A DNA stretch of 64,000 bases from a virus (Duplodnaviria; Heunggongvirae; Uroviricota; Caudoviricetes), in IMG/VR virus record IMGVR_UViG_3300042922_000323, positions 60,977 to 124,976 of that record; one strand, given 5' to 3'. Made by a program: the position numbers and the translations under genes. The notes under the pieces were generated by a model. The model saw nothing but the letters and a program-made list of their open reading frames with translations. It did not search any database and was not told where the DNA came from. This document shows positions 3,307-63,652 of this stretch, piece after piece. Position 1 is the first letter of the stretch. Each line of letters begins with the position of its first letter.

Positions 3307-4530
3307 TTATTTAAAGGCTTCCACCATTATTTTTCTGAACCTATTTAATAGTACCGCTGCTTCCGCTCTTGTTACAGGTGTGTCAATTCCAAACTTTCCA
3401 TGACCTTCACCATTGAATAAAAAGCTTCCATCAGCACATCTCATGTCTTCTAAGTCCCTAAAGTGTTCCCACCAATACGGCTTAGTAGCAGAACTTATAG
3501 CATTTTGAACATCTAAATACTTAGATGAAGTCTTGGTACTTCTCGGTGGTTCAGTATCTGAATACCTATAGTATAGGTTCATTCTCAATTTATTCAGCAG
3601 ACAAATGAAATCTATTCTAGGTAACTCTAGGTTAGGAAAGAATCTATCGTCATATTTAATGTTATCTGAGTGTGGTTGAACCTTAATGTATCGTGGCTTT
3701 GAAGTATACTCATATCTGGTGAGTACTGTACCTGTTATTATGCTGTTGTTAAGGCTATAGTGAACATACAGCCTACCATTCTCAATGGAATAATCACTGC
3801 TTTCCTTTATTAATGAAGAGTTCTCAACTCTCTTTAACTGAACTCCATTACATGACAAGGTCTCGGTATTTCTCAGATAAAATGGGTCATACACATACTG
3901 GTAATCACCTGTTATATTCAAACTTGCATAAGGCAACATCACAGGAGTACCATTATCAAGTTCTCTTATACCTGCTGTGGTTCTCACAACATTTTCATCG
4001 TTATAAATGTACTTTACATCTGTGGAACTCGGGTATTCCTTGACAGTAAACCATATCCCGTCGAAAGCTACAATGTCGAAAGTCGAGTTCTTGTATACCT
4101 TTTTATAGTAGCTGTCAATACTTGCACTATTTCGTAGCCAGGTATATTCGGTTATTATCTTAACAACCAACTGTGGTTCGCCACCATACACCAATCGCAC
4201 TACGGCATTTGCAGGTATCATCCTTCTGAATTTAATACGGGTTGTTCCCTTAGTTGTGTCAGGTGTTACTTCATCCAGTACTACAGATATTCCGTCAACA
4301 AACGCAATAAGAGGGTTGCTATCTGTAGCCTTAACCACAAAATTAACAACCTTCTCACTATGTGCTGACTTCTCTGAGTATGTGAAATCTATAGCTTCCT
4401 TACCTTCTTGAAAGGCATTGTATTCAATGCCCTCCAACAATTTTGAGCCATCAGCCATAGTCAAGTCTGCGGCTTCCTCTATGTGGTTGTAGTACCAACT
4501 GTAGGGTTGGACATCAATAAATCTGCTCAT
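3307..4530 (-). CDS. Distal tail or baseplate protein (407 aa). Its C-terminus is an SLH-like domain (…GKFGIDTPVTRAEAAVLLNRF…).
   Basis: ORF track. It sits between the Dit-like gene and the tail lysin. The C-terminus carries the TRAE motif typical of S-layer homology (SLH) domains. Confidence 0.5.
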   Translation of the reverse strand: MSRFIDVQPYSWYYNHIEEAADLTMADGSKLLEGIEYNAFQEGKEAIDFTYSEKSAHSEKVVNFVVKATDSNPLIAFVDGISVVLDEVTPDTTKGTTRIKFRRMIPANAVVRLVYGGEPQLVVKIITEYTWLRNSASIDSYYKKVYKNSTFDIVAFDGIWFTVKEYPSSTDVKYIYNDENVVRTTAGIRELDNGTPVMLPYASLNITGDYQYVYDPFYLRNTETLSCNGVQLKRVENSSLIKESSDYSIENGRLYVHYSLNNSIITGTVLTRYEYTSKPRYIKVQPHSDNIKYDDRFFPNLELPRIDFICLLNKLRMNLYYRYSDTEPPRSTKTSSKYLDVQNAISSATKPYWWEHFRDLEDMRCADGSFLFNGEGHGKFGIDTPVTRAEAAVLLNRFRKIMVEAFK

Positions 4531-4534
4531 TTTA

Positions 4535-5617
4535 CTACCCCCTCAACATTCTTTCTATCCATTTACGAGTGTTATTCAACATTGTTATAGCTTCTGCACG
4601 TGTAGCCCTGGCATTAGGTCTGTACGTGTAAACAGGGTTTCCTCTGCCATCTTGTGTAGATACGATACCCACATTAGCTATTTCCTGAATATCGTTATAT
4701 GCAAAGTGCTTACCGCCATTTGTGGTTACAGTGGCACTTACTGTAGTACTTAAACTATTAAAAGTGACCCCATTATAACTTGACAATTTAGGTGTAAGTT
4801 TCAATATGTTATATCCATAGTCTATACCAAAGTAGTCTTCATACCCCGCATCTTTTAATTGTTCTGCAAGTTTTGAAGGAATTACAAAACCTTCTATATT
4901 ACCTACAGCTACGGTGCTAGATGCTAAAGCGGCTATGTTACCTACAGCACTTGTCCCCGTAGACGTAGTAGCCTTGTATCCTCCATGAGCATTTGGTATT
5001 GTTAAATCAACATACTCACTCAACCCCCCGAATGTTAGGCGTATCTTCTGGTCTTGCCGCAGGTAGTATCCGTAATTAGTGAATTTAATGGTATGAACAG
5101 CCCCTGCTTCTAAGTCTGTATATTCAGCTAGTGAATCGGTAACTTCTCCCTCACTCTTTCGCACAGCCACAAGTTGAACCTTTACATCATATCTCTGACC
5201 TGCTTCTACCCTTGCAACTGTGGGTTGTTCAAGAATAGCTCCCATGTATATGCCGCCACGTTCATCATAGTACTTAAATGTATTGCCCATGTAGAACATA
5301 AAGTCCGAATAAGAAATACCGTCAGGGAATATCAATCTTAATTCAATTTTAAAAGAAGCTTTACCAGTGCCATGAATAATGGACTGACCACTGGCAAGTT
5401 TTATTTCCACATTTTTAGCAGTAGGAGAAGGAGGAGTATACTCCTCCACTATCCTTGCTATCTTTAAGTCTTCCCTTGTGACTCCATCAACAATAGGCTT
5501 AGCTATACTATTGGCAACCTCTGTCCAACCGTAACCAGTCTCCATAAACAATCTTCGTATAAAACTACTGTTGGTTTGGTATGCCATGTTGTTAACCATA
5601 GGTAGTTGCTGTGACAT
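4535..5617 (-). CDS. Distal tail protein (Dit-like, 360 aa) with a C-terminal SLH-like motif (…RPNARATRAEAITMLNN…).
   Basis: ORF track. It lies immediately downstream of the tape measure gene. It has a C-terminal TRAE motif. Confidence 0.45.
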   Translation of the reverse strand: MSQQLPMVNNMAYQTNSSFIRRLFMETGYGWTEVANSIAKPIVDGVTREDLKIARIVEEYTPPSPTAKNVEIKLASGQSIIHGTGKASFKIELRLIFPDGISYSDFMFYMGNTFKYYDERGGIYMGAILEQPTVARVEAGQRYDVKVQLVAVRKSEGEVTDSLAEYTDLEAGAVHTIKFTNYGYYLRQDQKIRLTFGGLSEYVDLTIPNAHGGYKATTSTGTSAVGNIAALASSTVAVGNIEGFVIPSKLAEQLKDAGYEDYFGIDYGYNILKLTPKLSSYNGVTFNSLSTTVSATVTTNGGKHFAYNDIQEIANVGIVSTQDGRGNPVYTYRPNARATRAEAITMLNNTRKWIERMLRG

Positions 5618-28056: not shown

Positions 28057-28131
28057 TGGCATACCCCGCAAGATTTGAACTCGCATCTAACAGTTTTGGA
28101 GACTGCTGTTCTACCGTTGAACTAGAGGTAT
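28057..28131 (-). tRNA. tRNA-Trp (anticodon CCA).
   Basis: The reverse complement ATACCTCTAGTTCAACGGTAGAACAGCAGTCTCCAAAACTGTTAGATGCGAGTTCAAATCTTGCGGGGTATGCCA folds as a cloverleaf with anticodon loop CTCCAAA. It closely resembles Bacillus tRNA-Trp. Confidence 0.85.
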
Positions 28132-43952: not shown

Positions 43953-44029
43953 GGGGGAATAGCCAAGTTAGGTAAGGCAATAGATTGCAAATCTATGATT
44001 CGGCAGTTCAAATCTGCCTTCTCCCTCCA
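43953..44029 (+). tRNA. tRNA-Cys (anticodon GCA).
   Basis: GGGGGAATAGCCAAGTTAGGTAAGGCAATAGATTGCAAATCTATGATTCGGCAGTTCAAATCTGCCTTCTCCCTCCA folds as a cloverleaf with anticodon loop TTGCAAA and an encoded CCA. It resembles Bacillus tRNA-Cys. Confidence 0.85.
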
Positions 44030-47054: not shown

Positions 47055-47293
47055 TAATAAATTTCCAATATTTGGGGATGATTTTGGTATCGACGGGCTT
47101 ATGAAGTGTTGTTCTCGCCCGAAGTCGCCCGTGGCTTCGATAAAACGGGCACTAAATTAAACGCTAAAAACGTATTAAATGCAGTAAAAGGTTTCTTTGC
47201 TTCCCTCGTACCAACTCCCGCTTTTGCAGGAGCTTGTGCGTAAGCTAGAGCCTTTCAAAACACCACACCTGCTACGGGTAAGTGGTTGAGGTC

Positions 47294-47477
47294 GGAGATA
47301 CATAGTGATAGTTTCCTGCATCGTTAATGCAGGTGGTGGATGGCTACGTAAACCAATACGTGCCCCAGTTTCAGCAGGTTTGTCAAACCGCCCCGCCAGG
47401 GTTAAAAGGCTACGGCGTGAATAAAGAACAACAGGGATTAGGTTCGGACACGGGTTCAACTCCCGTCATCTCCACCA
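47294..47477 (+). ncRNA. Candidate structured ncRNA (~184 nt) with a tRNA-like 3' end (T-arm ACGGGTTCAACTCCCGT, acceptor CATCTCC, A, CCA) pairing with a 5' GGAGATA. A rho-independent terminator (47479-47511) follows.
   Basis: Read and folded by hand. The internal hairpins (CCTGCATCGTTAATGCAGG, GGTTTGTCAAACC) lie in a region with no convincing ORF. Confidence 0.4.
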
Positions 47478-49371: not shown

Positions 49372-49440
49372 TTCCGTGTAGCTTAATGGTAGAGCAGCCC
49401 CCGAGGGGGGCGGATATTGGTTCGAACCCAATTACGGTAA
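49372..49440 (+). ncRNA. tRNA-like sequence with a non-canonical anticodon arm. The stem is GCCCC/GGGGC with a 5-nt loop, which alternatively folds as a 6-bp GC hairpin with loop GAG. It may be a pseudo-tRNA.
   Basis: D-arm TAGCTTAATGGTAGAGC and T-arm ATTGGTTCGAACCCAAT are canonical. The acceptor has one mismatch. No CCA is encoded. Confidence 0.3.
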
Positions 49441-54884: not shown

Positions 54885-54955
54885 AATAGGAGGTGGGCAA
54901 ATTGCCAAGAAAAGTAGTAAAGAAAGAAACAGAATTATCAGGAGGTAATGACGTT

Positions 54956-56506
54956 ATGAGTAATCCAGTACAGGCAGAAGATGTTATTAAGCCAGAGCAG
55001 TTGAACCTTATTATTTTGGCTTGCACTGACTGCGGTCAGGATTGCAGTAAATCTTATGGTGAGGTTGATGGCAAGCCTTTCTGTGACAAATGTTTTGATA
55101 AGAATTTCCGAGAGTGCACTGATTGTGGTAAACTCAAACCAAAAGCTGATGGAAAATTCTTCAAAAGAAAATTCTTTTGTATTGACTGCTATGACAGGAA
55201 GTACACCCTATGCGGACACTGCCACGAAAAGCTTGCAAAAGAAGATGCTAAAGAGCATGACGGAGTTCTGTACTGCCCGAAGTGCTTTGAAGAGCTGTTT
55301 GTAACATGTACTGACTGCGGTGCTGTTATGTTAAAAGATAGCACCGTAGTTCATGAGGGCAAGCATTACTGTCAGACTTGCTATGATGCAATGTTTGTAG
55401 AGTGTGTTGAATGTCACGCAAGAGTTCACAGAAGTAGTATTGTCCTGGTGGACGGTGAACCTTATTGTGGTCATTGCTTTGAGACTCAAACAGTTGAGTG
55501 CGACCATTGCCACAGAAGAGTAAACATTAACAATGCTCACGAAGATGAATATATTCACCTATGTAGTGATTGTTATGACAGTAACTATTACACTTGTGAT
55601 AGTTGTGGTAACTTTGTGCACGGCAATGATTTGGTGAGCAGAGGAAGTCAAACATTCTGCCCCGATTGTGCCCCTACGAGAGACATTCATGACTACTCGT
55701 TTAAACCTACCCCAAGATTCTACGGCGGATTTGACGAATTTGCCACATTCATGGGTGTTGAACTTGAATGTGACAGTGCAGGTGAGGACAGTGACAATGC
55801 AAGAAGAGTACTGAATATTACTAATGCAGAATACCGACTGCTCTATTGTAAGCATGATGGTTCACTAAATCGTGGATTTGAAATGGTTACCTATCCATGT
55901 ACCCTTGATTGGCACATGAATAAGTTCCCGTGGAAAGACGCACTGAAAAAATGTAGGTCAATGGGCTACAAGAGCCATGACAGTGGTAATTGTGGTCTAC
56001 ACGTACATATCAGCAGAAAAGCTTTTGGTACATCATTGGAAGACCAGGACGTTAACATCATGAAGTTATTGTTCTTCTTCGAGAAGTTCTGGACTAAGAT
56101 GGTTAGATTCTCACGAAGAACTGACTCTCAGCTTTCAAGATGGGCTAAAAGATATGGAATGAAGAGAACGCCGCAGGAGCTTCTGAATACTGCTAAAGGT
56201 TCAGAAAGATACTACGCCGTTAACCTTTGTAATCAAAAAACTATTGAGTTGAGATTGTTCAGGGGTACTCTTAAATATTCCACATTCATTGCCACTCTAC
56301 AGTTTGTACATGAACTTGTACGTATACTGAAAGAGTCATCAGTTGATGAAGTTACAAATACAAACTGGCTTGACTTTGTTAGGAAGATGAATCCTGAGTA
56401 CAGAGAACTCGGGGAATATCTTGAAAGAAGGGGCTTATCTTCTGAACCCATGACTACTGGCGTAGCTCGTGAGGATACAGATAACGACGAAGATACCGCC
56501 GCATAA
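54956..56506 (+). CDS. Fusion of an N-terminal seven-repeat LIM-like zinc-finger array (C-x2-C-x8-14-C-x2-C-F/Y) to a C-terminal amidoligase domain (Amidoligase_2-like, of the glutamine-synthetase or GCS-like fold; …GVELECDS…HDGSLNRGFEMVTYP…NCGLHVHIS…).
   Basis: Motifs read directly. The start is an ATG after GGAGGT, in frame with the ORF track ORF 54893-56506. I recognise the amidoligase fold by motif only. Confidence 0.55.
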   Translation: MSNPVQAEDVIKPEQLNLIILACTDCGQDCSKSYGEVDGKPFCDKCFDKNFRECTDCGKLKPKADGKFFKRKFFCIDCYDRKYTLCGHCHEKLAKEDAKEHDGVLYCPKCFEELFVTCTDCGAVMLKDSTVVHEGKHYCQTCYDAMFVECVECHARVHRSSIVLVDGEPYCGHCFETQTVECDHCHRRVNINNAHEDEYIHLCSDCYDSNYYTCDSCGNFVHGNDLVSRGSQTFCPDCAPTRDIHDYSFKPTPRFYGGFDEFATFMGVELECDSAGEDSDNARRVLNITNAEYRLLYCKHDGSLNRGFEMVTYPCTLDWHMNKFPWKDALKKCRSMGYKSHDSGNCGLHVHISRKAFGTSLEDQDVNIMKLLFFFEKFWTKMVRFSRRTDSQLSRWAKRYGMKRTPQELLNTAKGSERYYAVNLCNQKTIELRLFRGTLKYSTFIATLQFVHELVRILKESSVDEVTNTNWLDFVRKMNPEYRELGEYLERRGLSSEPMTTGVAREDTDNDEDTAA

Positions 56507-56586
56507 TTACTGTTAGCTGAGAGTCACCTGCATAAGTGGGTGGCTCTTTTAATTTACTTATTAAAAACTTAGGAGGTTTGATAATC

Positions 56587-57918
56587 ATGTGTGGATTATA
56601 CGGTTTCATTAACTATTCAGATAAGGAATTTAAGGGTCTTGATGCAGTTGTAGAACTGCTTGGTAAATCCTCCGCCGTAAGGGGTACAGACGCTACAGGT
56701 ATAGCGTACAATATGGACGGTAAGTTGCATATAGACAAAGATGCAAAGTCAGCTTATCAGTTCAAGTTTGATGTTCCTGACAGTTCAAAGGTTGTTATTG
56801 GGCACACTCGTAAGACAACCCAGGGAAATCAAAAGAAGAATTACAATAACCATCCGTTCCGTGGCAAAATTGGAGAGACTAACTTTGCTTTGGCGCATAA
56901 CGGGGTTATTCACAATGACCTGAGACTGAGAAATCAGTTGAAGCTTGAAAAACCAAAGATTGAGACTGACAGTTACGTAGCTGTTCAGTTGATTGAAAAA
57001 CACGGAACTTGGGGTATTGATGCCCTTAAATATGCAGGTGAAATGGTCGAGGGTATGTTCTCATTCACCTTAATGGATGACCAGGATAATTGGTATCTTG
57101 TTAAGAATGACTCCCCGCTCGTAATGCTCCATTTCCCTGAACTCGGGGTGTATGTATATGCTTCAACACAAACAATATTGTTTGAAGCCATACTATATAG
57201 CTCCGCTCTATCTTCTGAAATAATCAGCCCATTCAAGACAGGAGTTGTGAGTGCTGTTCTTCTTGAACCAAAAGCGGGGGATATATGGAAAATAAACAGC
57301 AAAACTGGTGAACTTGAAAAGTCCACATTTAAGCCATCAGATGATAGAAGATACTATGGAAATGGTTATGGCTATAACTCCTGCTACTGGGATGACTATG
57401 ACTGTGGATATGGAAGGGTGTGGGACGCTAAGGCAAACACCTGGAAAGAGAGTTCCACTAGCAGAAAGTCTACAACTACTATTTCCACAACTTCTACTAC
57501 AAGCACTGCCGCAAGCACCACTAAGAAAGAGAAGTCAAAGTATGACCCTGCAAAGGAAGCCAACAGGCTCACAGATAAGGAATACTATGACATGCTGTTA
57601 CAGGTTGCCGAAGGTATGGGGCATGATAGAAAGGATATTCGTATCTTAAAGAACTACGGATATGGGTTGGATGAAATTGAACAGGCTCTGTTTGATAGAA
57701 CACTTGATCTGTTGCTTGAAGAAGCCAAGCAAGTCGTAGGGGACAAGATAGATAATCTTGCAGGAGATACAGAACTTGATAAGGGCGACATTATAACTGA
57801 GGATGGTGCTTCTGTTAATCAGATTCTGAACGAAGTAGATGAAACCAACAAGAGAGCCGAAGCCGCCATAGCGTCGGCAACAGGAATATCATCGTCAGTC
57901 GTTATTGAAGAAGACTAG
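56587..57918 (+). CDS. Class-II (Ntn) glutamine amidotransferase-like protein with an N-terminal Met-Cys nucleophile (MCGLYGF…) and a Ser/Thr-rich, coiled C-terminal extension.
   Basis: MCG at the N-terminus after RBS GGAGG. A GATase-II-like core follows (…GHTRKTTQG…). It is adjacent to the amidoligase gene, as expected for amidoligase-GATase systems. Confidence 0.55.
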   Translation: MCGLYGFINYSDKEFKGLDAVVELLGKSSAVRGTDATGIAYNMDGKLHIDKDAKSAYQFKFDVPDSSKVVIGHTRKTTQGNQKKNYNNHPFRGKIGETNFALAHNGVIHNDLRLRNQLKLEKPKIETDSYVAVQLIEKHGTWGIDALKYAGEMVEGMFSFTLMDDQDNWYLVKNDSPLVMLHFPELGVYVYASTQTILFEAILYSSALSSEIISPFKTGVVSAVLLEPKAGDIWKINSKTGELEKSTFKPSDDRRYYGNGYGYNSCYWDDYDCGYGRVWDAKANTWKESSTSRKSTTTISTTSTTSTAASTTKKEKSKYDPAKEANRLTDKEYYDMLLQVAEGMGHDRKDIRILKNYGYGLDEIEQALFDRTLDLLLEEAKQVVGDKIDNLAGDTELDKGDIITEDGASVNQILNEVDETNKRAEAAIASATGISSSVVIEED

Positions 57919-58019
57919 ACATTCTAAGGGCTACCAACCAACTGGGCAGGTTGGTGGTCTCTGTGAGTGCCTAGTCACTCCAATGTAAATTTTAATGTAT
58001 ATAACAGGAGGTGTTATGT

Positions 58020-58271
58020 ATGGCAAGGGTTAGAGAAAAAAAGACCAAAGTAAAAATCAAATGTCAAAGCTGTAGTAAAAGTTTTCCTATCAGCGAATGG
58101 CATAAAGCTACGGAAAGTGCGAGTGGCGGAAGATTGAACCACAGGCTTCCGTATGTCCGTGGAATCAGCGTCAGGTGTCCTGGGTGTGGTTACAATCAAA
58201 ATGTAAACCGTTGCTCTCGTACAATGACAAAAGAAGGCAAGGAGCTTGATGGCTATTATGTAACTACATAG
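58020..58271 (+). CDS. Zinc-ribbon paralog 1 (KCQSCSKSF…EWH…RCPGCGY).
   Basis: Start trimmed to an ATG after GGAGGTG. It shares an N-terminal pattern with the next two genes. Confidence 0.5.
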   Translation: MARVREKKTKVKIKCQSCSKSFPISEWHKATESASGGRLNHRLPYVRGISVRCPGCGYNQNVNRCSRTMTKEGKELDGYYVTT

Positions 58272-58282
58272 GAGGTAAGTTT

Positions 58283-58618
58283 ATGTCAAAAGCACATCAG
58301 AAGGGGACTAAGTCCCAAAGGACAGTAATGCTCAAATGTCCACTGTGTGGTAAAATCCACTCAGCCACCGAATGGCACAACACAGCCCAAAAGAGGTGGA
58401 AAACAATCAGAAAACTCCCTTCCAACAAGCAAAATTGTTGGTTTGAGTGTCCTAGTTGCGGTGAAACTTCTAAAGGCATAGAATTAGTACCCGTTGTTAG
58501 TGTGGGAGGGCAAGTTACAGGCGAAGGTTGGTTCGCCTATTATCACACACCATCAGAAAAGGAGGAAGTAACAGATGTCGCAACTCAAAGTGAAGTGCCC
58601 GCAATGTCAGAAACTTAA
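58283..58618 (+). CDS. Zinc-ribbon paralog 2 (KCPLCGKIHSATEWH…ECPSCGE).
   Basis: ORF track. RBS AGGAGGT. Confidence 0.5.
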   Translation: MSKAHQKGTKSQRTVMLKCPLCGKIHSATEWHNTAQKRWKTIRKLPSNKQNCWFECPSCGETSKGIELVPVVSVGGQVTGEGWFAYYHTPSEKEEVTDVATQSEVPAMSET

Positions 58619-59480
58619 TACTGAGTTATTGTGGAATGAAACTACAGCAGAAAAAACACACACAAACCTGAAAAAGTTAAACTTAATCAGGAGTTGTGAT
58701 AACCACAGCCGTAAGTATTACTGTCCTGAGTGTGAACAGCCGAGTAAGTACAGTGAACTTGAAATAATATCTAATGAAAAGGATATAGGTAGGAGATTAT
58801 TCCTTTCGGCATATGCACAGGTGGCTCTCCAAATTAAAACATTGAGAGCGGCAGGTGTGATTACAGATACGAAGGAGAACATTTTGAAACTACTGCCAGA
58901 GGTAGACCAAGTGTATTCTCTTGTACTCCGTTCATTTGAAAATGCTGAAATCTATAATGATGTTCGTGGAGGTAATTTGAAAAGTGTATCAGGTACACTT
59001 TGCCACCTCGCAAGTTACACGTTAGATGGGGACAGGTTAAAAGAAGAACCACTCGGTGTTCTTACTTTCCAGTATGAAATTAAGAGCAACAGAATATCAG
59101 TAAAATGGAAGACACTTAATCGTGACTCATGGAGCGACCCTGTCAGTTATATAGCTATACACAGGGATAGGGCAAAGAAACGTAGTATTCTTGCTAAGAA
59201 CTATGTGCCGCCTAAGACGAGGATTGGGAGTGATGGTAAGCTGTATGTTTCTTATCCCACAGTGGACGGTAAAAAAATGCAAACCATTAAGCTTGACGAA
59301 TTCATGTCAAGACCTATGGATTTTAAGCCTAACTTGACATTTGACGAGTTCTTACAAATGCTTTGTGATACTGAAACGGTGACTCTTGCTCCACAAGTAT
59401 CATCGGTATCTCTTGAAGAAGAACCACTTACCGACGGGGCAAGTAGCATTAATGCCAGTATCGAGGTAGAAGATTTTTAA
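58575..59480 (+). CDS. Zinc-ribbon paralog 3 with a ~200-aa C-terminal extension (KCPQCQKLNTELLWNE…YCPECEQ).
   Basis: ORF track. RBS AAGGAGGAAG. It overlaps the upstream stop. Confidence 0.5.
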   Translation: MSQLKVKCPQCQKLNTELLWNETTAEKTHTNLKKLNLIRSCDNHSRKYYCPECEQPSKYSELEIISNEKDIGRRLFLSAYAQVALQIKTLRAAGVITDTKENILKLLPEVDQVYSLVLRSFENAEIYNDVRGGNLKSVSGTLCHLASYTLDGDRLKEEPLGVLTFQYEIKSNRISVKWKTLNRDSWSDPVSYIAIHRDRAKKRSILAKNYVPPKTRIGSDGKLYVSYPTVDGKKMQTIKLDEFMSRPMDFKPNLTFDEFLQMLCDTETVTLAPQVSSVSLEEEPLTDGASSINASIEVEDF

Positions 59481-59492
59481 GGCGGTGATAAA

Positions 59493-60173
59493 ATGATTTA
59501 TCTCGACAACAGATACAATTTCCGTCAGATAATAGACCCGAATAATCTAAGAAAGTTATATGTTACAGCAAACGTCACCAGACTTTTAAAAAGTATTCTT
59601 GGTGACGTTGTTGTATCTGCTCAACAGATACTATACTACGGAGAAAATCGTGAACACGATAGCTTTTTAGAACAGACCATAGCTGAAAAACTGGTATACG
59701 TCGAGGATTATAATGAACTTTCACTTGACCAAGGTGACATTTTAATTAAATTCATAAACAACAAAGTAGTCAAGATAAGTTCACCAAACTCTGCGGGGTC
59801 ACTGGACGAGAGTTTAGGGTTTGCATCACTCCCAGGAACTGAGCTTCGGGCTAGTGGCTACAGTGTTATGAAATACATAAAGGGTGATTATAATTCAAAC
59901 CCCCATGTCTACTACACTATAGACGTAACAAATAAACTTATTGAATATTTCGGTAATATTTTGGAAAAAGCCGAACAACTAATCTGGAATACTTATAAAT
60001 CTGATGATAGTTACGCTATTAAAACAGCGAGACATGCGTTAGAATTACCTACTGTGGGTTTTGAGTGTGGTATGGTAGTATTTAGATTTACTGACGGGCA
60101 CATAATGGAGATAAACACTTACGGAGACCTGTGTAAAATAACTGAATCTGAAATGATTGGAGGTGGGAATTAA
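59493..60173 (+). CDS. Hypothetical protein (226 aa).
   Basis: ORF track. RBS GGCGGTG. Confidence 0.45.
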   Translation: MIYLDNRYNFRQIIDPNNLRKLYVTANVTRLLKSILGDVVVSAQQILYYGENREHDSFLEQTIAEKLVYVEDYNELSLDQGDILIKFINNKVVKISSPNSAGSLDESLGFASLPGTELRASGYSVMKYIKGDYNSNPHVYYTIDVTNKLIEYFGNILEKAEQLIWNTYKSDDSYAIKTARHALELPTVGFECGMVVFRFTDGHIMEINTYGDLCKITESEMIGGGN

Positions 60174-61000
60174 TGGTTAACAAATATAACCTTACAAAAA
60201 CTCAGATAGCTGATATGGTTCAAAAATTTGCGAGTATACTTCCAGAGGATTTAATGAATAAAACTATCATTGAAGCATTGGAAAACCAAGCACCTGAGAT
60301 TATGAAGTCTATTGAGAGACATAAGAATGTTCCACAGGCTATAGATGCCTACATGATACGTAATCAGTATAAGTATTTGCAAATAGGTGAAGGCGAGGAT
60401 ATAAGTGATATTGTCAATTTTGATGCCAACACATTTAACTTTGAAACTTGGTCGTACAATCGTCTTGTGCTATTAGCAGAACTTGGGAAATTAAAACCTG
60501 TAAGGACTCTGAAAGGTGAGGGAAACGATTTATTTACTGTCTTCGCCTATAATAGTCACCATATGTTTGGACAACAACTTTATTATGACGGTAGTAATAC
60601 AGCATATAAGTTATACCACAAAGGGTCAATTGAAACCAGGGATAGTTGGGGAGAGAAGAGATTCTATTTCCAATACGGTTCTAGGACTTTGAACCTTACA
60701 GGGGTTTTTCCTGAATTTACAGTTGAGCCACGCAAGGCTGAAGAAGAAGACGTTGTTGTGATACCTTTATCATGGATTGCCTATGAATATGGTGACGGTG
60801 GATATAGAGTCAAGTTCCCTGATGGTTATGGGTATAAAATGTCCTCTGATATGTTTAATAAAATGTCTTTAGGCATAGATAATAATAAAGTTAAGTTGAG
60901 ACTGCCTAAGTCGGTTGCGGCTCATGCAAAAGAAAGACCGAGAACGTACCCACGCTCACTGTGGTCAAGCGAAACAAATAGTTGGGAAGATAGTAGATAA
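60173..61000 (+). CDS. Hypothetical protein (275 aa).
   Basis: ORF track. The start overlaps the upstream stop. RBS GGAGGTG. Confidence 0.45.
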   Translation: MVNKYNLTKTQIADMVQKFASILPEDLMNKTIIEALENQAPEIMKSIERHKNVPQAIDAYMIRNQYKYLQIGEGEDISDIVNFDANTFNFETWSYNRLVLLAELGKLKPVRTLKGEGNDLFTVFAYNSHHMFGQQLYYDGSNTAYKLYHKGSIETRDSWGEKRFYFQYGSRTLNLTGVFPEFTVEPRKAEEEDVVVIPLSWIAYEYGDGGYRVKFPDGYGYKMSSDMFNKMSLGIDNNKVKLRLPKSVAAHAKERPRTYPRSLWSSETNSWEDSR

Positions 61001-61051
61001 CTAAAGCACAGGGCTGTTGCTCTGTGCTTTAATTTATGTGGAGGTGAGAGT

Positions 61052-63190: not shown

Positions 63191-63652
63191 ATGATTGAGA
63201 TTAAGGATGGCAACCTTTTAGCAAAAAACAATGATGGGATTATATGCAATCTCGTTAATTGTGTTGCTTCAATGAACGGCGGCTTAGCATTACAGATAAA
63301 GCTTGCATATCCAAAAGTATACGATACATACAGAACTTACTGCGAAGTCAATAAGTTTGATTTCGTTAAAATGTTAGGCACAATGATGCCTATTTGGGTT
63401 GATGGAAAATGTATTGTAAACCTATTTGGGCAGACCACCTACGGTATAGGTGCTTGCTTTATTAATTATAAAGCTCTAAATACGGGATTGACAAAACTGG
63501 CAAGGTACGCAAAGTCCATCAAATTAGACGTAGCAATGCCGTGGGGCATGGGTGCAAGAGATGGTGGCGGAGACTGGCAGGTAATTTACAATATAATTGA
63601 ATCTGCTTTCAAAGATTACAAAGTAACTCTCTACAAGGGTGGAGATTGGTAA
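63191..63652 (+). CDS. Macro-domain (ADP-ribose binding or processing) protein (153 aa; …ICNLVNCVASMNGGLALQI…).
   Basis: An N-x-V-N…GG-L-A motif resembling the macro-domain phosphate-binding loop. The size is typical of a stand-alone macro domain. Confidence 0.5.
   Translation: MIEIKDGNLLAKNNDGIICNLVNCVASMNGGLALQIKLAYPKVYDTYRTYCEVNKFDFVKMLGTMMPIWVDGKCIVNLFGQTTYGIGACFINYKALNTGLTKLARYAKSIKLDVAMPWGMGARDGGGDWQVIYNIIESAFKDYKVTLYKGGDW

Follow-up and report, generated by a model that had tools for sequence, protein, structure and literature searches.

An obligate gene pair of phages and integrative elements links a LIM-like zinc-finger–amidoligase fusion to a class-II glutamine amidotransferase-type protein, a candidate protein-modification module

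Two consecutive genes in the window, by which we mean the whole 64,000-nucleotide stretch of Caudoviricetes DNA that was analysed, encode an amidoligase fused to an array of seven LIM-like zinc fingers and a stand-alone class-II glutamine amidotransferase (GATase-II)-type protein. Phages and small integrative elements both carry the pair; it is common on the mobile elements of gut Clostridia, and the subfamily is confined to mobile elements. Our favoured explanation, to which we give a probability of roughly 35%, is a two-protein module on a mobile element in which a protein- or peptide-directed ligase would form a gamma-glutamyl-type bond and its partner would hydrolyse that bond. We rate this ligase–hydrolase reading only slightly above that of a glutamine-dependent amidotransferase split over two proteins.

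Gene 1 is present in the list of open reading frames (ORFs) at positions 54893–56506 (+ strand; 537 aa). The earlier note had described a two-part ORF of 537 codons beginning at 54956; such an ORF exists, with both the Pfam LIM model (PF00412; 36.5 bits, cut-off 22.9) and Amidoligase_2 (PF12224; 32.9 bits, cut-off 22, residues 317–474) above their cut-offs, and there is indeed an ATG with its own AGGAGG site at 54956, but this codon lies inside the ORF, which opens at GTG 54893. TTG 54902 is also preceded by an AGGAGG site at good spacing and, judging from these upstream sites, the real start is likely to be either TTG 54902 or ATG 54956; the closest homologue is annotated from an earlier start and not from the internal ATG. 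The gene 1 protein matches PHROG 16683 (‘unknown function’) with an E value of 2.7e-76 and, weakly, the annotated amidoligase PHROGs, and its AlphaFold2 model has a pLDDT of 87.8. Seven tandem single-zinc C4 treble-clef fingers, supported by CxxC spacing, HMM and Foldseek, occupy residues 44–259 (55022–55669, +). They are followed by the conserved linker IHDYSFKPTPRFYG and the Amidoligase_2 catalytic domain at residues 264–515 (55682–56437, +), and by the acidic, disordered C-terminal tail EPMTTGVAREDTDNDEDTAA at residues 516–537 (56438–56503, +), which has a pI of 4.05 and, for residues 520–537, pLDDT values below 50. Acidic tails of the form NEPVxxExE[VI] were also seen among homologue sequences.

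The 14 CxxC motifs of the array form seven units with a period of 31–32 residues, beginning at C44, C75, C107, C139, C171, C203 and C235. Each unit has the form CxxC-x16/17-CxxC and is separated from the next by 7 residues, so that the seven N-terminal repeats reported earlier stand, as units of regular spacing that are LIM-like by HMM and fold, while the gap between their CxxC knuckles is 16–17 residues and not 8–14. The canonical LIM layout (C2HC plus C4 with a 2-residue spacer) is not found in these units, and the Pfam LIM match spans the second half of the model alone (positions 28–57 of 58). Because of this half-model match, the form of the units and their 7-residue spacers, we regard the array as LIM-like rather than canonical LIM. 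Foldseek likens it to tandem LIM proteins (PINCH1 LIM4-5, E = 5e-5; LMO2, E = 4.5e-4), among them some whose structures were determined together with a peptide ligand (for example LMO2:LDB1 and Lhx3:Isl1), and when the family profile was searched against PDB sequences LIM proteins were the sole matches (PINCH, FHL2 and CRP; E = 1e-4). Among 73 homologues the cysteines from C174 to C259 are invariant and C171 is kept in at least 90%. Fingers 5–7 (residues 171–259) are thus the part that is invariant across the family, and fingers 1–4 are an expansion. Family members carry two to eight fingers, typically three or four, which places the seven fingers of the window in the upper range; the apparently finger-less homologues among the cluster representatives turned out to be truncated fragments. 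The non-cysteine positions of the fingers are far more variable than the catalytic domain. A leucine-rich-repeat (LRR) domain added to one homologue was the sole informative fusion among the long homologues scanned. The array is acidic, with a pI of 5.5 overall and of 5.1 for the three invariant fingers.

The C-terminal half of the protein is an Amidoligase_2 domain with the GS/GCL fold. Its model matches YbdK, GCL, GS, Dop and PafA, with 12–16% identity to the best of these, YbdK and plant GCL, and a sequence search detected no solved structure for the family. The motifs by which the domain had been recognised (GVELECDS, KHDGSLNRGFEMVTYP and NCGLHVHIS) are all present, and this fold match together with the PF12224 score bears out the amidoligase identity; most homologues also carry a precomputed Amidoligase_2 assignment. 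Residues E290, E292, K320, D322, S324, E330, H362, H370, H372, R408, R409, N444, E452, R454 and R457 are invariant in the 73 homologues; E290, E292, E330, H370, H372, E452, R454 and R457 among them are candidates for binding metal and phosphate. The domain is predicted to be an ATP-dependent carboxylate–amine ligase.

Gene 2 (56587–57918, +; 443 aa) starts at ATG 56587, 10 nt behind its AGGAGG ribosome-binding site (56571–56576, +), and the following TGT opens the MCGLYGF sequence that the earlier note had taken for the N-terminal cysteine nucleophile of a GATase-II. This assignment is corroborated by GATase_6 (55.6 bits, cut-off 27), by the fold match and by the full set of glutaminase residues. 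M1-C2-G3 is found in 60 of 60 aligned homologues, and R75, N105-G106 and D128, which are invariant among homologues and align with the motifs of PurF, correspond to the glutamine-binding Arg, the Asn-Gly oxyanion pair and the Asp for the alpha-amine. On this basis the protein is of the stand-alone Cys1 (Ntn) GATase-II type with a predicted complete glutaminase site. Its nearest folds are PurF and GlmS, ahead of EgtC, to which it is about 16% identical, and its best NCBIfam match is the GlmS N-terminal domain. The GATase domain comprises residues 1–256 (56587–57354, +). What had been called a Thr/Ser-rich tail is in fact a disordered linker, rich in Tyr, Trp, Asp and Gly and then in Thr and Ser (residues 257–326; 57355–57564, +), after which comes a conserved helical region containing GYGLDEIEQALF (residues 327–432; 57565–57882, +). 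Residues 257–443 thus consist of linker and helices, and neither Pfam nor NCBIfam gave a second (synthase or acceptor) domain on this protein. In the window 80 nt separate the two genes, including a 13-bp stem-loop followed by a T-rich run (56519–56548, +) that was picked up by pattern in a consensus scan and may be a partial terminator or attenuator.

The fusion of zinc fingers to an amidoligase, described as unusual in the earlier note, defines a family of thousands of proteins. Its members fall into 3,188 clusters at 90% identity and yield some 2,000 representatives at 50% (threshold E ≤ 1e-30), and species-representative genomes contain at least 553 such loci. In 77 of 80 genome loci the ligase gene is immediately followed by the GATase gene; the remaining three break off where the contig ends, so that the GATase gene comes next in 77/77 loci with room for a downstream gene; in 58 of 62 loci the ligase stop and the GATase start overlap or lie within 4 nt of each other (-1 to 4 nt). 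This order is common to phages and islands that otherwise share nothing. Finger number and partner length correlate with a rho of 0.57, which is confounded by lineage and is a hint at most. Neither the window ORFs between 52990 and 61000 nor the Clostridia loci contain an ATP-grasp ligase, COOH-NH2_lig or AIG2/GGCT gene, and PADLOC-DB 2.0 gave no defence match for the two enzymes and five downstream proteins. A megablast of the locus against 50,697 phage records returned no match, and a pattern scan of viral contigs with a single protein gave no confirmed relative. Around the pair, an SLT transglycosylase gene lies 1.2 kb upstream in the window, RtcB is encoded about 5 kb downstream in locus L011, and a finger-less relative in C. 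difficile phage AR1086-1 adjoins the RNA-repair genes RlaP and KptA. Other Amidoligase_2 genes in Firmicutes elements adjoin gamma-glutamyl cyclotransferases.

Several small proteins accompany the pair. Motif search and alignment revealed three zinc-ribbon paralogues downstream in the window: A (58011–58271, +), with the motif CxxC-x8-W[NH]xxT...CPxC, B (58283–58618, +) and C (58575–59480, +), in which an N-terminal ribbon is followed by about 230 further residues that received no Pfam, PHROG, NCBIfam or PADLOC assignment. The same ribbon module is fused to the C-terminus of the ligase homologues P0014, P0015 and P0016, which lends support to the hint that the earlier note gave about these paralogues. 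In phage locus L013, a protein of 116 aa encoded three genes beyond the pair on its downstream side is matched by paralogue B (E = 6e-7). A ribbon is encoded downstream in two phage lineages; a profile search for this family found 5 proteins only, and scans of two islands and one phage locus did not turn it up. DUF960, with a conserved ...AEEY end, lies directly upstream of the pair in about 30–40 of 80 loci, and DUF3846 is fused to or adjoins it in some. We rejected DUF960 as a universal third component, since it is present neither in the window nor in any phage locus; it is a backbone gene of SCC-type elements that do not have this ligase.

The domain identities, the folds, the conserved catalytic residues, the obligate linkage of the genes and their setting on mobile elements are shown by the findings above; the module's substrates, reaction direction and target we infer as follows. 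The LIM-like fingers would dock an extended peptide segment, belonging either to a target protein or to the partner's disordered linker. The ligase would activate a gamma-carboxylate as an acyl-phosphate, most likely that of glutamate, as in characterised enzymes of the fold, and would join it to an amine of the bound protein or peptide, yielding a gamma-glutamyl-type amide. The gene 2 protein, which retains all the residues that hold a gamma-glutamyl group with free alpha-amino and alpha-carboxylate, would act on the gamma-glutamyl bond as a trimming or erasing hydrolase, in a role comparable to that of EgtC after EgtA, PuuD after PuuA or Dop beside PafA. By this means the module would probably modify a protein of the host or of the element during establishment of the phage or island. 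Peptide targeting is suggested because the LIM matches bind peptides, the array is acidic, finger number and surface vary and an LRR fusion occurs, and gamma-glutamyl chemistry because other Amidoligase_2 genes adjoin gamma-glutamyl cyclotransferases and LUZ24-like phages carry both types of partner. Against this favoured reading, equal amounts of ligase and hydrolase for one bond would run a futile cycle unless regulated, the overlapping or closely spaced stop and start codons fit an obligate enzyme complex better, the true amidotransferases PurF and GlmS are nearer to the partner than EgtC is, sequence searches bring up no solved structure for the family, and the role of the fingers could be simply to keep the two proteins joined.

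The main rival is a split glutamine-dependent amidotransferase, which we consider possible. Here the two proteins would form a 1:1 complex in which the GATase-II hydrolyses glutamine and passes ammonia to the ligase, which turns a carboxylate on a finger-bound target into a carboxamide; the acceptor might be a C-terminus, the side chain of a Glu or Asp residue in a protein, or a precursor of the cell wall. The unbroken adjacency (77/77) and the spacing in 58/62 loci suggest translational coupling, the glutaminase residues are all invariant, and the nearest folds as well as the best NCBIfam match are those of amidotransferases. Moreover, glutamine synthetase, a fold relative of the ligase, takes ammonia as nucleophile, the partner's conserved tail and linker suit docking, the zinc module is found now on the ligase (Clostridia) and now on the GATase (UFV-P2, Marvin), as expected of one unit, and the reaction would be complete and productive with two proteins alone. 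Against it, the characterised class-II amidotransferases known to us all fuse the synthase to the GATase domain and the stand-alone ones, such as EgtC, are hydrolases; other subfamilies pair the ligase with a gamma-glutamyl cyclotransferase, which is no nitrogen donor; and the two genes of the window are separated by 80 nt that include a hairpin. We consider it rather unlikely that the pair makes or remodels a small molecule or cell-envelope component (a gamma-glutamyl peptide, a conjugate of an amine, or a precursor of peptidoglycan or teichoic acid), either as the surface change blocking superinfection that was predicted in 2009 or in auxiliary nitrogen metabolism, with fingers that are structural or oligomerising. 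Later papers cite the 2009 prediction in this sense, the pair of LUZ24-like phages together with its ATP-grasp, COOH-NH2 ligase and gamma-glutamyl cyclotransferase genes resembles a small biosynthetic pathway, the best fold matches YbdK and GCL use free amino acids, and the upstream SLT transglycosylase gene would agree with a role at the envelope. Yet the window and the Clostridia islands have the two enzymes alone with no further pathway genes, Pfam and PHROG recognise no membrane, secretion or cell-wall domain on either protein, and two to eight fingers of a peptide-binding type with fast-evolving surfaces, together with the one LRR fusion, are hard to explain in this way.

The small linked proteins (zinc ribbon, DUF960 and DUF3846) speak for a Pup-like system, in which the ligase would attach the carboxylate of a small co-encoded protein to target lysines and the GATase-II would prepare or remove this tag; the ribbons would be the candidate tags in phages and DUF960 or DUF3846 those in islands. 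We hold this to be improbable: none of the candidates has the C-terminal Glu or Gln of Pup (the window's two short ribbon proteins end otherwise, and DUF960 ends in ...EEY), no small protein is universal, with DUF960 missing from phages and the ribbon from three scanned loci, and DUF960 belongs to the backbone of elements that do not have the ligase. In addition, a protein C-terminus lacks the free alpha-amine of the glutamyl group that the GATase pocket takes. More improbable still is a role in nucleic-acid modification, with fingers that bind DNA or RNA and enzymes that act on a tRNA or a modified base by amidating or glutamylating it. Zinc ribbons are frequently nucleic-acid binders, and the neighbours RlaP, KptA and RtcB described above would fit, but the acidity of the array argues against the nucleic-acid targeting that the earlier note had allowed for, the sequence and fold neighbours of the fingers are protein-binding LIM domains, and Pfam and PHROG scans showed no DNA-modification genes nearby.

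As a doubtful but possible extension, phages and integrative elements of Gram-positives might use a previously unrecognised anti-host protein modification that combines a LIM-like reader with gamma-glutamylation of lysine or, with the GATase as nitrogen source, amidation of a functional Glu/Asp. The array would then pick a host protein through a disordered segment, and an arms race with that protein would drive change in the number and surface of the fingers. A target in the host would make the module a new enzymatic strategy in phage–host conflict and a new bacterial post-translational modification; failing that, it would still be an enzyme pair without a known function that abounds in Clostridia of the human and animal gut. 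Should the nitrogen-donor version be true, it would be the first split class-II amidotransferase. Attention was drawn to amidoligase–GATase pairs of phage genomes as early as 2009, in a prediction that is still quoted, and the very large subfamily defined here offers experimental handles: an obligate two-gene unit, a LIM-like peptide-reading array of variable copy number and surface, a docking-type tail on the partner, and, as accessory proteins, the zinc ribbons, DUF960 and DUF3846.

Iyer, Abhiman, Burroughs and Aravind reportedly predicted phage gene pairs of Amidoligase_2 and GAT-II bioinformatically in 2009, and such pairs are said to have been proposed to modify the cell surface and thereby block superinfection. 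Later papers quote this prediction of cell-surface modification, and another citing paper speaks of an auxiliary role in nitrogen metabolism. The literature searched contained no experimental study of amidoligase–GATase pairs beyond the bioinformatic prediction, in agreement with the earlier statement that no such pair has been functionally characterised in a phage; a study of Klebsiella fimbriae was discarded as a functional lead, as it concerns an ATP-grasp enzyme. The ligase family is common to the window, phiEco32, the LUZ24/PaP3/UFV-P2-like Pseudomonas phages and mycobacteriophage Marvin (gp105/gp106). As in these known phage pairs, the ligase precedes the GATase in an early or non-structural region, and gene 2 is of the same stand-alone Cys1 GATase-II type as UFV-P2 gp25 (about 29% identity over residues 1–198). 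In contrast, UFV-P2 gp23 is devoid of any CxxC motif whereas the window ligase has seven fingers; the zinc module lies at the GATase C-terminus in UFV-P2, and on the GATase in Marvin too, but on the ligase in Clostridia; and LUZ24-like phages such as UFV-P2 possess three further enzymes that the window does not have, namely a ligase of the ATP-grasp type, a COOH-NH2 ligase and a gamma-glutamyl cyclotransferase.

Outside phages, EgtA/EgtC of ergothioneine biosynthesis and PuuA/PuuD are analogous ligase–hydrolase pairs. Unlike the window pair, they act on small molecules, require additional enzymes between the ligation and removal steps, lack a zinc-finger array and do not reside on mobile elements. 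In pupylation both the ligase PafA and the deamidase/depupylase Dop have the GS fold, whereas the second enzyme of the window is a cysteine hydrolase of the Ntn fold; no Pup-like modifier ending in Gln or Glu and no proteasome genes were found in its context, and its hosts are mobile elements of Firmicutes, unlike the setting of pupylation. The array shares tandem treble-clef zinc fingers with PINCH, LMO2/4, Lhx3 and FHL, whose LIM arrays bind extended peptides in solved complexes. Canonical LIM domains nevertheless pair a C2HC with a C4 site across a 2-residue spacer and are eukaryotic, while the window carries seven single fingers rather than 3.5 double ones, each with one C4 site followed by a helix and a 7-residue spacer, in a prokaryotic or viral protein fused to an enzyme. 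Finally, MurT/GatD, one of several two-subunit glutamine amidotransferases and the model for the split-amidotransferase reading, has an ATP-dependent ligase and a separate, co-transcribed glutaminase that amidate a carboxylate; GatD is a class-I (triad) GATase, MurT has a Mur-ligase fold and the target is lipid II, whereas the window pair combines a class-II GATase-type protein with a ligase of the GS fold.

The 537-codon ORF that the earlier note had described as a zinc-finger/amidoligase fusion proved to be real and spans positions 54893-56506 on the plus strand. The start proposed for it at 54956 is an internal ATG, with candidate starts further upstream at 54893 and 54902. The N-terminal half of the encoded ligase carries 14 CxxC motifs arranged as seven CxxC-x16/17-CxxC units, whose first cysteines lie at residues 44, 75, 107, 139, 171, 203 and 235, with seven residues between units; the knuckle spacing of 8-14 residues read previously is in fact 16-17. 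Once the cysteines are excluded, the units share just 10-35% pairwise identity, which argues for an old array and not a recent duplication. Both parts of the protein were recognized by Pfam (LIM, 36.5 bits, cut-off 22.9; Amidoligase_2, 32.9 bits, cut-off 22), while the top PHROG, 16683 (E 2.7e-76), is annotated as 'unknown function' and none of the NCBIfam models covered the ligase.

In an AlphaFold2 model built from an alignment with 73 homologues (mean pLDDT 87.8), every finger repeat adopted the hairpin-hairpin-helix arrangement of a treble-clef finger. Foldseek matches to this model comprised two sets, namely YbdK (E 2e-5) and a series of tandem LIM proteins, including PINCH1 LIM4-5 (5e-5), LMO2 with an LDB1 peptide (4.5e-4), Lhx3 with an Isl1 peptide, paxillin and TES. 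Searching PDB sequences with the family profile returned LIM proteins only (E 1e-4), and no solved structure was detected for the catalytic domain by PDB sequence or profile searches. The protein is a GS/GCL-fold ligase whose conserved residue set is intact: E290, E292, K320, D322, S324, E330, H362, H370, H372, R408, R409, N444, E452, R454 and R457 are invariant in the 73 homologues, as are I265 and P272 in the linker between fingers and catalytic domain. Of the 12 cysteines in the last three fingers (5-7), 11 show no variation at all, and C171 shows very little. Outside the cysteines, the fingers vary far more than the catalytic domain (the commonest residue has a mean frequency of 0.40 versus 0.64), and their surfaces evolve fast. 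The array is acidic (pI 5.5). The ligase also ends in a disordered acidic tail (EDTDNDEDTAA, 56438-56503), which reads NEPVxxExE[VI] in the island homologues inspected (P0029, P0096, P0107 and P0017) and might serve for docking or be modified by the enzyme itself.

The downstream gene (56587-57918, plus strand) encodes the partner, a Cys1 Ntn protein of the class-II glutamine amidotransferase (GATase) type, which lacks an acceptor domain but retains the whole gamma-glutamyl/glutamine pocket. Its M-C-G-L-Y-G-F beginning was read correctly, as the true start is the ATG at 56587, ten bases past an AGGAGG; the Thr/Ser-rich stretch taken for its tail is really a linker. Pfam assigned the protein to GATase_6 (55.6 bits), and the family invariants are M1, C2, G3, R32-G33, H73, R75, T78, N87-N88-H89-P90-F91, H104-N105-G106 and D128, among which R75, N105-G106 and D128 match the corresponding residues in a PurF alignment. 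In this fold, Cys1 acts as the nucleophile, R75 and D128 as the glutamine-binding arginine and aspartate, and N105-G106 as the oxyanion pair. Following a Tyr/Trp/Asp/Gly-rich linker, 96 of 120 partner homologues carry a C-terminal motif of the type G[YF]xxxEIExALY. In the window protein, residues 257-290 (57355-57450) form an aromatic, acidic linker segment, YYGNGYGYNSCYWDDYDCGYGRVWD, with the family consensus YGxxxWWxYG; its model has low pLDDT and contains two short strands, and the segment is a candidate ligand of the LIM-like fingers.

An identical entry for the ligase comes from a 125-kb JGI contig, and its relatives are abundant. We found 3,188 at E<=1e-3 in a 90%-identity cluster database, and among 50%-identity representatives 10,944 at E<=1e-3, 7,312 at E<=1e-10 and 2,005 at E<=1e-30. 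Species-representative genomes contain at least 553 loci with a ligase, with two or three copies in some genomes, and the best 80 of these loci all belong to Clostridia (including Oscillospiraceae, Ruminococcus, Butyricicoccus, Agathobaculum and Flavonifractor). The fusion, previously regarded as unusual, is a common architecture in which seven fingers mark the upper range. Among the best 120 matches, one protein has two fingers, 79 have three, 16 four, 7 five, 10 six and 7 seven, and the intact diverse representatives that could be parsed by the motif pattern carry two to eight, most commonly four. In one homologue (P0292, an 820-aa metagenomic cluster representative), a C-terminal region of BspA-type leucine-rich repeats (LRR_5, 324 bits) comes after the fingers and the ligase domain and gives this one enzyme a second type of protein-binding module. 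Clostridioides phage AR1086-1 (OR397124.1, 4677-6866) encodes a ligase relative with a different, 108-aa N-terminus devoid of zinc fingers; it adjoins an RlaP nucleotidyltransferase (RNA-repair pathway), lies near a KptA RNA 2'-phosphotransferase gene and has no adjacent GATase gene.

The ligase and GATase genes co-occur obligately, and the pair is restricted to mobile elements. The ligase-then-GATase order recurs in elements with nothing else in common: the window and a 72%-identical phage relative, a 110-kb phage, a 96-kb phage, a faecal phage fragment, mycobacteriophage Marvin (gp105/gp106), and small integrative elements that encode an integrase, a D5_N primase and, in some cases, a relaxase. 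Among the best 80 genome loci, the GATase lies directly downstream of the ligase in 77, the remaining three stopping 43-222 nt past the ligase match. The ligase stop and the GATase ATG are -1 to 4 nt apart in 58 of 62 scorable loci; in the window the gap is 80 nt and holds a 13-bp hairpin followed by Ts. A serine recombinase is encoded just downstream in 47 of these best 80 loci, where integrase, primase and relaxase are other frequent neighbours, and DUF3846 is found fused to the ligase or adjoining the pair. A 94-aa DUF960 (PF06124) protein, usually directly upstream of the ligase, was present in approximately 40 of the 80 by clustering and in 35 by a stricter motif; it was absent from the window and from every phage locus examined. 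DUF960 is known to belong to the staphylococcal SCC ccr gene complex (PMC10581047), so the pair-bearing islands have an SCC-like backbone. In loci L014-L093 this protein has a conserved C-terminus (...STMLLAEEY), and its gene generally stops some tens of nucleotides short of the start of the ligase gene. PADLOC defence models gave zero matches for either enzyme.

The window itself comes from a large, temperate phage of siphovirus-like type. Its structural genes (terminase, portal and major head protein) occupy 1 to 24 kb on the minus strand. After them come an integrase and, at approximately 31 to 64 kb, small early-type genes in a long block on the plus strand; the terminase shares 52% identity with its counterpart in Brevibacillus phage Jenst. 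A tmRNA is encoded at 47074-47477 (plus strand; Rfam RF00023, 108 bits over the full-length model, gathering score 47), and ARAGORN predicted the tag peptide AKNVLNAVKGFFASLVPTPAFAGACA for it. The phage also has genes for tRNA-Trp(CCA) (28057-28131, minus strand), tRNA-Leu(GAG) (49372-49440, plus strand) and tRNA-Cys(GCA) (43953-44029, plus strand). The last of these is of note because the phage encodes several Cys-rich zinc proteins, namely the ligase with its 35 cysteines and three zinc-ribbon paralogues. A 153-aa ORF at 63191-63652 (plus strand) matches PHROG 335 ('phosphatase', E 3e-31), and its predicted product looks like a Macro domain; in one island (L010), where a primase gene lies directly before the pair, a Pfam Macro-domain protein (4520-5488) is encoded two genes upstream of that primase.

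Behind the pair, a zinc ribbon (consensus KCPxCG-x7-W[NH]xxT...CPxC) is common to the products of 58011-58271 and 58283-58618 and to the N-terminus of that of 58575-59480. The close phage relative (L001) has three copies, an unrelated phage (L013) has one, three genes downstream of the pair, and homologues P0014, P0015 and P0016 carry the ribbon fused to the ligase C-terminus; this fusion and the conserved closeness of the genes together speak for a functional link. A profile search for the family recovered just five proteins, and no other ORF with the motif turned up when the window and the 13 loci scanned were translated in six frames. After the zinc-ribbon genes come two plus-strand ORFs of 226 and 275 aa (59493-61000), which are kept in the close relative and had zero matches in any library scanned. 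Since a strong terminator-like hairpin (61002-61031) lies right behind them, both may be in the same transcription unit as the pair.

Zinc modules also occur on the partner. In UFV-P2 (LUZ24-like), the ligase gp23 lacks CxxC motifs and the GATase gp25 bears a C-terminal Cys-rich module, and in Marvin gp106 has such a module and gp105 a short degenerate finger region. The presence of a zinc module in all three lineages compared, on either protein, suggests that ligase and GATase work jointly at a single site. Longer arrays accompany longer partners (median 312 aa with three fingers versus 338-459 aa with five to seven; paired Spearman 0.57, n=67), which is a hint only, as the many-finger group comes from few lineages.

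Characterized GS-fold ligases (GS, GCL, PuuA-type and PafA) convert a glutamate gamma-carboxylate into an acyl-phosphate for coupling to ammonia, to an amine or to a lysine of a protein; EgtC-like stand-alone class-II GATase folds hydrolyse gamma-glutamyl amides, and extended peptides are ligands of tandem LIM arrays. By analogy, our tentatively preferred reading (probability roughly 0.35) is that the fingers would guide the ligase to a protein or peptide, where it would form a gamma-glutamyl-type bond with an amine, and that protein 2 would trim or erase this bond. The pairing of other Amidoligase_2 subfamilies with gamma-glutamyl cyclotransferase lends this reading further support. In a close rival reading, possible though doubtful, the two proteins would be the halves of a glutamine-dependent amidotransferase and would turn a carboxylate of the target into an amide. 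It accounts better for the translational coupling, the docking-type tail of the partner and its PurF/GlmS-like character, and it would obtain a complete reaction from two proteins, but such a split has no known precedent among class-II enzymes.

The small-molecule or cell-wall chemistry proposed in 2009 by Iyer, Abhiman, Burroughs and Aravind is rather unlikely, and we rank it below both finger-guided ligation and the split amidotransferase, because further pathway genes are absent and the finger array is left unexplained. Pup-like tagging with a small protein seems improbable, and modification of nucleic acids more improbable still.

The window pair belongs with the Amidoligase_2 + GAT-II pairing, which bioinformatic analysis has recognized since 2009. 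We found no experimental characterization of such pairs in the literature, where papers from 2023-2024 merely restate the 2009 prediction, and the interest of the pair lies in this functional question, in the abundance of the family and in its direct testability. Although LIM-like, the fingers do not fit the canonical definition of LIM domains, which calls for two sites and a 2-residue spacer. Compared with the LUZ24/phiEco32-type clusters, the window-type pair has two enzymes only, a LIM-like array on the ligase, a conserved helical tail on the partner and accessory zinc-ribbon, DUF960 and DUF3846 proteins, and it is found in Firmicutes phages and SCC-like islands.
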